From a phage, in assembly GCA_012813795.1 (NCBI GenBank), contig GCA_012813795.1_4087.1: 64,000 bases of DNA; one strand, 5' to 3'. The notes below the pieces were generated by a model, which was not told where the DNA came from, ran no database searches, and saw nothing but the letters and a program-made list of their open reading frames with translations. Below, piece after piece: positions 61,075-61,900 of this stretch (position 1 is the first letter of the stretch; each line of letters starts with the position of its first letter). The position numbers and the translations under genes are program-made.

Positions 61075-61497
61075 TTAAATTAATCTGTCACGCAAGCGGG
61101 ATTCATATTGTTTATGTATAGATAGTATATACTGAAATGAAGAATAGTCAATACTAAATGTATCATCAATGAACATGTACTGATCAAGTGTTTCAGGTCC
61201 ATCATCAACTACAGGCAATGAACCTACTTTCTTTTCTAACACATTCCATGCAAACTCATCGGAAGTATCAAATCTATGGTATTGTAGTTCTATCTTACTT
61301 TTTCTTAGTATAATTAATAATTCATCACCATCATCATATGCATTACGGATTTTAATACGTACTGTTCCTTGTAACTGGTTAGTATACATTACGCGATATT
61401 GGTTGTATGTGACTAAACCACGTCTTTCAGTACTGAACTCTTGTTCAGAAAAGTACTTTAACGTTTCGTTGAATTTGGGTATTTTAGTAACGTCCAA
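61075..61497 (-). CDS. hypothetical protein, tandem paralog A
   Basis: 140 aa; C-terminal half (QYMFIDDTFSIDYSSFQYILSIHKQYE) parallels the neighbouring ORF. Confidence 0.45.
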   Translation of the reverse strand: MDVTKIPKFNETLKYFSEQEFSTERRGLVTYNQYRVMYTNQLQGTVRIKIRNAYDDGDELLIILRKSKIELQYHRFDTSDEFAWNVLEKKVGSLPVVDDGPETLDQYMFIDDTFSIDYSSFQYILSIHKQYESRLRDRLI

Positions 61498-61900
61498 TTA
61501 CGTAATCCTCATACTGTTCGTATACACGCATTATACTCTGATATGTCACAAAGTCAATACCAAAGGTATCATCAATGAACTGATATTGCATAAACTCTTC
61601 CTCGGTAGCACCAATAGGAAGTGTGCCGTTTCGTTGATCGTTTGATTGAACATCTTCAATGTACATCAAACCTATACTTTCATCTAAAGTGATATCTATC
61701 ATAAAAACATCTTCACTATAAAACATGTTATATGAACGGATGAAAAGATTACCAGTTCTATCAAAACTTGATACATGTGTTTCAACGTAGGTTCTATCTA
61801 AACTAAAGAATAAACCAGTACCATCGGGTTTTCGTTGGTCTTTCAATTTAATTTCGATAGCATCAAATATCGGTTTAATATTAAACTTTTTCATAAGCAA
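61484..61900 (-). CDS. hypothetical protein, tandem paralog B
   Basis: 138 aa; C-terminal half (QYQFIDDTFGIDFVTYQSIMRVYEQYE) parallels paralog A. Confidence 0.45.
   Translation of the reverse strand: MLMKKFNIKPIFDAIEIKLKDQRKPDGTGLFFSLDRTYVETHVSSFDRTGNLFIRSYNMFYSEDVFMIDITLDESIGLMYIEDVQSNDQRNGTLPIGATEEEFMQYQFIDDTFGIDFVTYQSIMRVYEQYEDYVIGRY

Follow-up and report, generated by a model that had tools for sequence, protein, structure and literature searches.

Two short adjacent genes of a jumbo phage raise the question whether they are the products of a local duplication, how far the family to which they belong extends, and what its proteins may do. They lie in a stretch of 64,000 nucleotides (contig GCA_012813795.1_4087.1), analysed as a whole and referred to here as the window, which is DNA of an Asteriusvirus jumbo coliphage of the 121Q/PBECO4 group. 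A megablast search with the region 60900-62950 matched 36 phage records, all from Asteriusvirus-type jumbo phages of E. coli or Salmonella, the closest being Escherichia phage A4 (98.8% identity), with the remaining records at 79-84%. Phages 121Q, PBECO4 and phAPEC6 are among the matching records. Every gene of the region is carried by the minus strand, and in order of transcription the locus contains the following features:

62924-63853, minus strand: lysozyme with LysM, first in transcription order
62577-62909, minus strand: HPF/RaiA (Pfam Ribosomal_S30AE, E=4e-10)
62544..62570, minus strand: terminator-like GC-rich hairpin with a T-run, between HPF and gene C, annotated as a terminator in phage G17
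62112..62525, minus strand: gene C, 137 aa, pI 4.3, phrog_36582, candidate distant third member of the family
62093..62178, no strand assigned: perfect 43-bp tandem duplication at the 3' end of gene C
61891..62079, minus strand: TM62, 61-62 aa, transmembrane helix at the N-terminus, tail containing Cys, phrog_4189, between C and B
61484..61900, minus strand: gene B as maximal ORF (138 aa, TTG at 61900), pI 4.4, phrog_20693, paralog of A
61075..61497, minus strand: gene A, 140 aa, TTG start, pI 5.2, phrog_20693
60941..61063, minus strand: p40, 40-aa acidic Trp-rich protein, phrog_34272, directly after A
60313-60939, minus strand: HNH-type endonuclease-like ORF, after p40
59197-60309, minus strand: CCA-adding enzyme, after the HNH-type ORF
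58694-59110, minus strand: Nudix, after the CCA-adding enzyme

A first-pass annotation of the window had described A and B as tandem small genes, and both are indeed present as minus-strand ORFs at these coordinates, encoding 140 aa and 138 or 136 aa, respectively. The start codon of B is probably the ATG at 61894 (136 aa), as this is the one used by B orthologues; it overlaps the stop codon of TM62 (ATGA). B itself extends 14 nt into A. The TTG start of A is situated right behind an in-frame TAA, and its Shine-Dalgarno sequence (GAGGA) is formed by the last codons of B (conserved ...YEDY). Orthologues of A include A4_533, 121Q gp537 and phAPEC6 gp289c. A search for tRNA genes in the window found none.

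A and B are true tandem paralogs that originate from a local duplication. They are adjacent, on the same strand and significantly similar, and there are fewer copies at the syntenic site of outgroup phages. The paralogy proposed in the first-pass annotation is confirmed by BLASTP, with 39% identity across the C-terminal 51 residues (E=4e-10), and by the matches of both proteins to phrog_20693 over their full length (E=1.1e-44 for residues 1-139 of A, E=1.4e-58 for residues 3-138 of B). In an all-vs-all BLAST of the 218 ORFs of the window, A and B form one of seven paralogous pairs in total (E=8.6e-8). The alignment between B of phage WPEC5 and A of the window extends over about 92 residues (34% identity, E=9e-8), and is longer than that of the A-B pair within the window. 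A joint multiple alignment of 21 A and B orthologues contains 20 invariant columns; those in the N-terminal part include F32, I54, D64, I68, I76, L78 and Y80. At the DNA level, the likeness of A and B is visible as a 72-nt direct repeat with 74% identity (61103-61174 and 61509-61580).

Both proteins carry a conserved C-terminal module:

61084..61236, minus strand: conserved C-terminal module of A, residues ~88-138
61490..61639, minus strand: conserved C-terminal module of B, residues ~88-137, the best part of the structural model of B (pLDDT 90-93)

The motif that had been quoted for this module is correct in its residues, but two of its spacings are one residue too short; the actual sequences are QYMFIDDTFSIDYSSFQYILSIHKQYE and QYQFIDDTFGIDFVTYQSIMRVYEQYE. 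Alignment to the B model places the A module on the last beta-strand and on helices alphaB and alphaC, with the acidic loop FIDDTFSID between these two. The substitutions seen in the module are conservative (F/Y, I/V, D/E). A-B identity amounts to 39-41% within genomes and 40-44% between genomes. Since it is not higher within genomes, the duplication must be old, preceding the divergence of the genus, and the copies have not been homogenised; concerted evolution or gene conversion of A and B is rejected on the same grounds.

Sequence searches indicate that the A/B family is narrow. Word-indexed searches covering 5.8 billion proteins yielded 6, 14 and 13 close homologues of B, A and C, respectively, all of them Asteriusvirus-like, and an exhaustive HMMER search of 1.84 billion cluster representatives with the family profile gave six matches. 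One hit of this profile search is P0036 (125 aa), here called protein E, which is encoded on a 19-kb metagenomic contig (L009) with conserved synteny (lysozyme-HPF-E-TM60-CCA-Nudix-glutaredoxin). Protein E is similar to B (4e-10), A (2e-9) and D (4e-6), and matches phrog_20693 in the C-terminal module only (3.3e-11). RaK2/K64-1-type Klebsiella phages have a single 150-aa gene between lysozyme and CCA that is recognised by the family HMM (E=9e-11); the RaK2 protein also matches phrog_20693 in the C-terminal module only (1.5e-4). Phage RCIP0023 likewise has one family copy. Gene D (123 aa, pI 4.5) is an optional member seen in nine Asteriusviruses only, and is immediately followed by p42, a second copy of the 40-aa gene; the match of protein D to phrog_20693 (E=0.95) is below threshold. 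By these similarities the family would unite phrog_20693 with D, with protein E of the metagenomic contig and with the 150-aa protein of RaK2. Apart from family members, the exhaustive profile search matched one spurious protein, P0038 (736 aa), which was rejected because it is a bacterial pre-peptidase-type repeat protein and its match an artefact of composition or repeats. The slot is filled by unrelated proteins in Mimasvirus (GAP32, CBB), and the syntenic genes GAP32_184 and CBB gp189 were also rejected, as they match neither the family profile nor that of C.

Of this family, it was already known that the genes are deposited as hypothetical proteins, and that A and B belong to one PHROG. 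PHROG 20693 (121Q gp536/gp537, PBECO4 L7TJV1, A4_532/533), whose profile is matched end to end by A and B, merges both paralogs and does not include C; neither E nor the RaK2 protein, both of which match it, is a known member. New are the inclusion of D, E, the RaK2 protein and, probably, C in the family, the difference in copy number between outgroups and Asteriusvirus, the predicted p32-like topology and the embedded promoter-like site.

Comparison across related phages, another of the checks suggested for this locus, revealed that the gene content of the site differs between isolates. The order is C-TM-B-A-p40 in 121Q and PBECO4, and C-D-p42-TM-B-A-p40 in WPEC5. Turkey5 has C-D-p42-TM and lacks A, B and p40, and in Salmonella phages a deletion of A/B has left either a tail of A of 33 aa or a fusion, TM62::A, which also occurs independently as P0037. 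The loss of A and B in Turkey5/JNE01-type and Salmonella phages implies that a phage can, at least in some settings, do without them. TM62 is kept in the examined Asteriusviruses with intact loci and also on L009, whereas the SD-1_S14/P0037 deletion variant has it fused or lacks it. There are two alleles of B, only about 52-55% identical to each other. RaK2/K64-1-type phages and L009 have one copy of the family, versus A and B, with or without D, in Asteriusviruses. As the outgroups have one copy and Asteriusvirus several, the family has expanded in Asteriusvirus, in agreement with the local expansion in a variable region that had been postulated from the window itself. The A/B family is best described as a set of lineage-specific small accessory genes in a plastic phage region, and represents ordinary accessory-gene evolution, if with some unusual details.

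The genes had also been called fast-evolving, for which the support is weak. Values of dN/dS, calculated according to Nei-Gojobori from five or six phages, are 0.29 for A, 0.29 for B and 0.35 for C, as compared with 0.25 for HPF, 0.19 for TM62, 0.14 for lysozyme, 0.08 for CCA and 0.08 for the strongly constrained p40. A, B and C are thus clearly under purifying selection that is somewhat more relaxed than in nearby enzymes, and there is no detectable positive selection at the level of whole genes. Their dN/dS does exceed that of CCA and lysozyme, but it is close to that of HPF, and their divergence is like that of the neighbours: amino-acid identity to 121Q is 70-83% for A, B and C, and 73-90% for neighbouring proteins.

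A fold could be predicted for the family with moderate confidence, in which a helix at the N-terminus is followed by a six-strand antiparallel beta-meander and then by two helices at the C-terminus. It is based on an AlphaFold2 model of B built on the shallow 21-sequence A/B alignment (pLDDT 79.8, pTM 0.77), with a helix at residues 9-21, six beta-strands in residues 31-94, and helices at 100-109 and 117-135. Model confidence peaks (90-93) at residues 90-130, which is the module common to A and B; this shared module (last strand, alphaB, the loop F-I/V-D/E-D-T-F-x-I-D, and alphaC) probably forms the core of the fold. In a Foldseek search of the PDB with the B model, each of the first 12 matches was a chain from the MAM33 family, either of p32/gC1qR/C1QBP or of its Leishmania homologue. 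Matches to p32-family structures (1yqf, 1p32) have a probability of 0.85-0.90, TM 0.34-0.39, an rmsd of ~15 A and E ~1e-2, and the resemblance seems a weak one, of topology and not of confident superposition. The order of elements in p32/gC1qR/C1QBP/Mam33 (N-terminal helix, antiparallel strands, two C-terminal helices) is that of the B model, and the proteins on both sides are small and strongly acidic. In contrast, p32 has seven strands while the B model has six confident ones, and p32 is longer than the phage proteins by about 40 residues. p32/MAM33 is a homotrimeric doughnut with an asymmetric acidic face; for the phage family, bulk acidity was measured (pI 4.3-5.2). Pfam MAM33 (PF02330) has no match among A, B, C, D, E and the RaK2 protein, A and B match no Pfam family at E<=1, and a literature search for MAM33-like proteins of phages found nothing relevant. 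In BFVD, the B model matched the PBECO4 B orthologue L7TJV1 (TM 0.86), followed by an A-type protein (24% identity, TM 0.60). Further matches are uncharacterised proteins of ~110-160 aa from GAP32, CBB, RaK2 and fHe-Yen9-04 (probability >0.9, TM 0.4-0.6), a hint of a wider, sequence-diffuse fold family in the RaK2-like jumbo phage clade.

Whether C is a third member of this family is less evident. The gene suspected as such in the first-pass annotation does exist and encodes 137 aa, but the similarity, described there as loose, is not significant in pairwise comparison. If the family were confined to A, B, D, E and the RaK2 protein, C would be an unrelated nearby acidic ORFan that resembles them through composition and size. 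This is what BLASTP would lead one to expect (E=0.043 versus B, 6.5 versus A), as would an hhalign probability of 1.8-11.5% (P=0.003-0.03) against the A/B family, the failure of protein E, which bridges A, B and D, to detect C, and the assignment of C to a separate PHROG (phrog_36582), with no match to phrog_20693 at E<=0.1. The AlphaFold model of C (pLDDT 47) is unusable as evidence of homology, and a BFVD search with it was uninformative. Against this reading stands the behaviour of C with family profiles. Among the 218 ORFs of the window, C is the best non-member found by an HMM of A/B/D/E, with or without the RaK2 protein (9.6-10.4 bits, E=0.006-0.01), and with the A/B/D/E HMM the runner-up non-member (E=0.31) is about 50-fold behind. 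Its score was reached by 3 of 20000 composition-preserving shuffles of C, and by 11 of 20000 when the RaK2 protein was added (P = 1.5e-4 to 5.5e-4). The hhalign alignment is collinear and almost full length. C and B both weakly match phrog_17453, and C and the diverged B allele P0005 weakly match phrog_35192; these shared weak matches of C and B have the same 5-residue offset as the direct C-B alignment, so that the register is consistent. C is also comparable to A and B in length and acidity (pI 4.3), and even its poor model retains the family order of helix, four or more strands, helix and helix. Finally, C is located directly after HPF, in the slot that is occupied on L009 by the genuine member E. 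On balance of this sequence evidence, it is fairly likely that C is a distant homologue of the A/B family, and its being unrelated appears rather unlikely.

The conserved module of B is predicted to have a second role, since it also encodes a near-consensus sigma70-type promoter-like site placed to drive A; the module of A possibly does likewise for p40:

61530..61557, minus strand: sigma70-type promoter-like site TTGACT-N16-TATAAT, 11/12 matches, in the conserved module of B
61124..61151, minus strand: homologous, weaker promoter-like site TTGACT-N16-TATACT, 10/12 matches, in A

The B site is the best of the region in a consensus scan, and its -10 element ends 33 nt upstream of the start codon of A. 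The A site ends 61 nt upstream of p40. Sites with at least 11/12 matches occur 17 times in the window as compared with 2.2 expected from second-order Markov simulations, and 13 of the 17 are on the gene-rich minus strand; at a threshold of at least 10/12 the numbers are 64 observed and 33 expected. The roughly 8-fold excess of the stronger sites suggests that most of these are real promoters. A similar arrangement is seen in the Nudix gene, whose 3' end contains a promoter-like site 42 nt ahead of the following ORF. Both hexamers of the B site are identical in 5/5 B orthologues examined, including alleles with ~50% diverged proteins, and they make use of the minority codons GAC, AGT and ATA. 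In codons 106-120 of A, all 11 of 11 synonymous-capable columns are invariant (5 phages), versus a fraction of ~0.5 elsewhere in A. Synonymous divergence is lowered both in this tract and in the 3' half of C, which could reflect recent recombination as well. A search of the literature for an Asteriusvirus transcriptome found none.

These observations could be read such that the module is conserved chiefly as DNA, as an embedded promoter or regulatory element or a recombination-homogenised tract, and not as a functional module of the protein. The 72-nt repeat, the promoter-like site at the same place in A and B and its persistence across diverged B alleles, the depressed synonymous divergence and the enrichment of strong sigma70-like sites in the window would all fit. 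We consider this unlikely nonetheless, because E, D and the RaK2 protein retain the amino-acid motif although their DNA is different and has no promoter hexamers. The absence of the hexamers at the equivalent positions of D and E implies that constraint on the protein is primary, and that in A and B the promoter adds to it. The conservative nature of the substitutions and the confident folding of the module, the best of the B model, also point to the protein, while the A-B identities within and between genomes give no sign of ongoing gene conversion. Constraints on DNA and protein can coexist in the module. The locus is a tightly packed co-directional array with translational coupling, in which the promoter in the module of B would drive A, and that in the module of A possibly p40. 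If so, each duplicated cassette would carry the promoter for the next gene. A conserved protein module that doubles as the promoter of a downstream paralog would be a compact case of overlapping coding and regulatory constraint.

The A/B-family proteins have no signal peptide or transmembrane segment and are acidic, with pI values from 4.3 (C) to 5.2 (A), B and D lying at 4.4 and 4.5. Searches of Pfam, NCBIfam, PADLOC and PDB sequences with A, B, C, D, E, TM62 and p40 produced no match above noise, to an enzyme family or otherwise, and none of these proteins matched a PADLOC-DB defence or anti-defence profile at E<=1. The best matches among PDB sequences, to the CFA/I fimbrial subunit and SAMHD1 (E 0.01-0.4), were dismissed as chance. 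The phAPEC6 orthologues gp289c-291c are missing from the published table of virion proteins detected by mass spectrometry (PMC7247149), which jumps from gp280c to gp306c and thus lacks gp288c-293c, an absence that for such small proteins is not proof that they are not in the virion. The first-pass annotation had also suggested host interaction, a putative role that has indirect support from this absence, from the acidity and from the loss of the genes in some isolates. Our best guess is that the A/B-family proteins are non-enzymatic intracellular binding proteins. We propose that the family was ancestrally single-copy in an early or auxiliary block lysozyme-HPF-[...]-CCA-Nudix of RaK2-like jumbo phages, and was duplicated locally in Asteriusvirus. 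The proteins would bind stoichiometrically inside the infected cell without enzyme activity; the conserved C-terminal helical module may serve as a scaffold, an oligomerisation surface or a surface for a common partner, while the divergent N-terminal sheet may provide target specificity, like that of the acidic p32/MAM33 binders and chaperones of basic proteins. The overall account, of tandem acidic non-virion paralogs that act as non-enzymatic intracellular binders, have expanded in one lineage and contain an embedded promoter, is tentative, most of its uncertainty being in the functional part.

A more specific role, as translation-related factors acting with HPF and the CCA enzyme, could also be imagined. 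Being acidic, the proteins could then, for example, chaperone basic ribosomal or RNA-binding proteins or act as decoys for these, comparable to MAM33/p32 in mitochondrial ribosome biogenesis; two reports on Mam33/p32 describe a role in supporting mitochondrial translation and ribosome biogenesis (PMC4571327, PMC5630164). Conservation of the HPF-to-CCA synteny across genera, the identity of the best structural analogues (p32/MAM33) and the strong acidity are in line with such a role. Neighbourhood in early regions of phages is a weak predictor of function, however, the corresponding slot in Mimasvirus holds unrelated proteins, the fold match is weak, and the proteins are dispensable in some isolates, all of which makes this role quite improbable. 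Bolder still, and most doubtful of all, is the notion that RaK2-like jumbo phages possess a diffuse acidic p32/MAM33-like superfamily (phrog_20693, phrog_36582 of C, and the weakly linked 17453, 35192 and 23322) of decoys or chaperones of basic host proteins (ribosomal or nucleoid) in an HPF/CCA translation-takeover block, spread in Asteriusvirus as self-promoting cassettes in which a coding module is the sigma70 promoter of the next gene. Under the more general interpretation as intracellular binders, the family would add one more to the small acidic phage proteins that have intracellular partners, in jumbo phages of which >80% of the genes are unannotated.

T4-like phages have hyperplastic regions with small early genes that possess their own early promoters, in PeSL-type modular cassettes. 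The locus described here shares with these hyperplastic regions the small co-directional ORFs between conserved genes, whose presence varies among close relatives, and the enrichment of sigma70-like promoters just upstream of the next gene. It differs from PeSL cassettes in that no boundary consisting of a promoter plus a stem-loop was found around A or B, and in that the promoter-like site is embedded in coding sequence and the genes are overlapping or translationally coupled. If the family does consist of intracellular binders, the one copy of RaK2-type phages, the two to four copies in Asteriusvirus and the deletions in Turkey5 and Salmonella phages would form a natural series for tests of such accessory genes in jumbo phages.

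The adjacency of A and p40, and of D and p42, suggests, speculatively, a duplicated two-gene unit and possibly a partnership of its products. L009 and RaK2 have no p40. A further duplication, on a smaller scale, is that of 43 bp at the end of gene C, by which the ancestral stop codon of C was replaced and RPFYIVQ was added to the protein. It also doubles a TATAAT-containing stretch upstream of TM62, and is present in the window, A4, BF17 and WPEC5, and absent in 121Q, PBECO4 and Turkey5.

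B and most of A, the tandem paralogs of the small acidic family, are deleted in the Salmonella-infecting Asteriusviruses SD-15_S21 and SD-1_S14 and in an independent database protein (P0037), leaving either a 33-residue A tail or a fusion of TM62, the small membrane protein encoded between C and B, to the A C-terminus (TM62::A). The assembly quality of the SD genomes is uncertain, since the lysozyme genes are also fragmented there. B itself occurs as two allelic types with a protein identity of only about 52–55%, while the flanking A and TM62 remain at about 70%, which suggests that B alone has been swapped by mosaic replacement.

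L003 3108-3209, L008 2898-3083 (loci of other phages or contigs) and protein P0037: A/B deletion variants
Window 61484-61900 versus L005 3630-4037: B alleles compared

Directly after A lies p40, an acidic protein of 40 residues (60941-61063) that is under very strong constraint (dN/dS 0.08) and has GFWESLRDWLMGE as its C-terminal end. At the syntenic site of Mimasvirus, several unrelated small proteins carry a p40-like terminal motif (SFWYSLIKEDIL, SFWGSLLVEDFI, TFWGSMIIQDII), and p40 and these proteins may have a C-terminal amphipathic peptide in common. The adjoining site, between p40 and the CCA-adding enzyme gene (CCA), appears to be a hotspot at which mobile endonuclease genes insert: the window has a 208-residue ORF here whose match to HNH homing-endonuclease PHROGs is confined to their C-terminal half (positions 198-402 of 420 in phrog_953), phage A4 has an unrelated gene of 355 residues (BLASTP E=1.8), and 121Q has no gene at all. 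In the Mimasvirus GAP32, GAP32_181/182 are pieces of a similar gene.

Window 60941-61063, L012 2907-3498 and L013 2771-3504: loci compared for the p40-like C-terminal motif
60313-60939, minus strand: 208-residue ORF between p40 and CCA, matching HNH homing-endonuclease PHROGs

Gene C, the candidate distant third member, has lost its ancestral stop codon through a perfect 43-bp tandem duplication, gaining seven residues (RPFYIVQ). The same event doubled a TATAAT-containing stretch immediately upstream of TM62. The window, A4, BF17 and WPEC5 carry the duplication, which 121Q, PBECO4 and Turkey5 lack. On the other side of C, a GC-rich hairpin, the equivalent of which is annotated as a terminator in G17, leaves little room (about 18 nt) before the C start codon, so that C would have to rely on read-through or on a promoter within HPF for its expression.

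62093-62178: perfect 43-bp tandem duplication, C 3' end
62544-62570: hairpin with 11-bp stem and T-run, between HPF and C

The whole window has 17 near-consensus sigma70 sites (11 or more of the 12 positions matching) versus about 2.2 expected, 13 of them on the minus strand, including a pair of perfect 12/12 sites spaced 94 nt apart within 43359-43480. Several of these sites are located within the 3' ends of upstream genes, with the next start codon 33–42 nt further on. Other paralogous ORFs also occur in the window.

43480-43453, 43386-43359 and 58759-58731, minus strand: examples of near-consensus sigma70 sites
49976-50752 and 50840-51523: adjacent paralogous pair (29% identity, E=3e-35)
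29438-29935 and 29996-30283: adjacent paralogous pair (47% over 57 residues, E=4e-9)
1220-3883, 3918-4406 and 62924-63853: three genes with a common lysozyme-like domain
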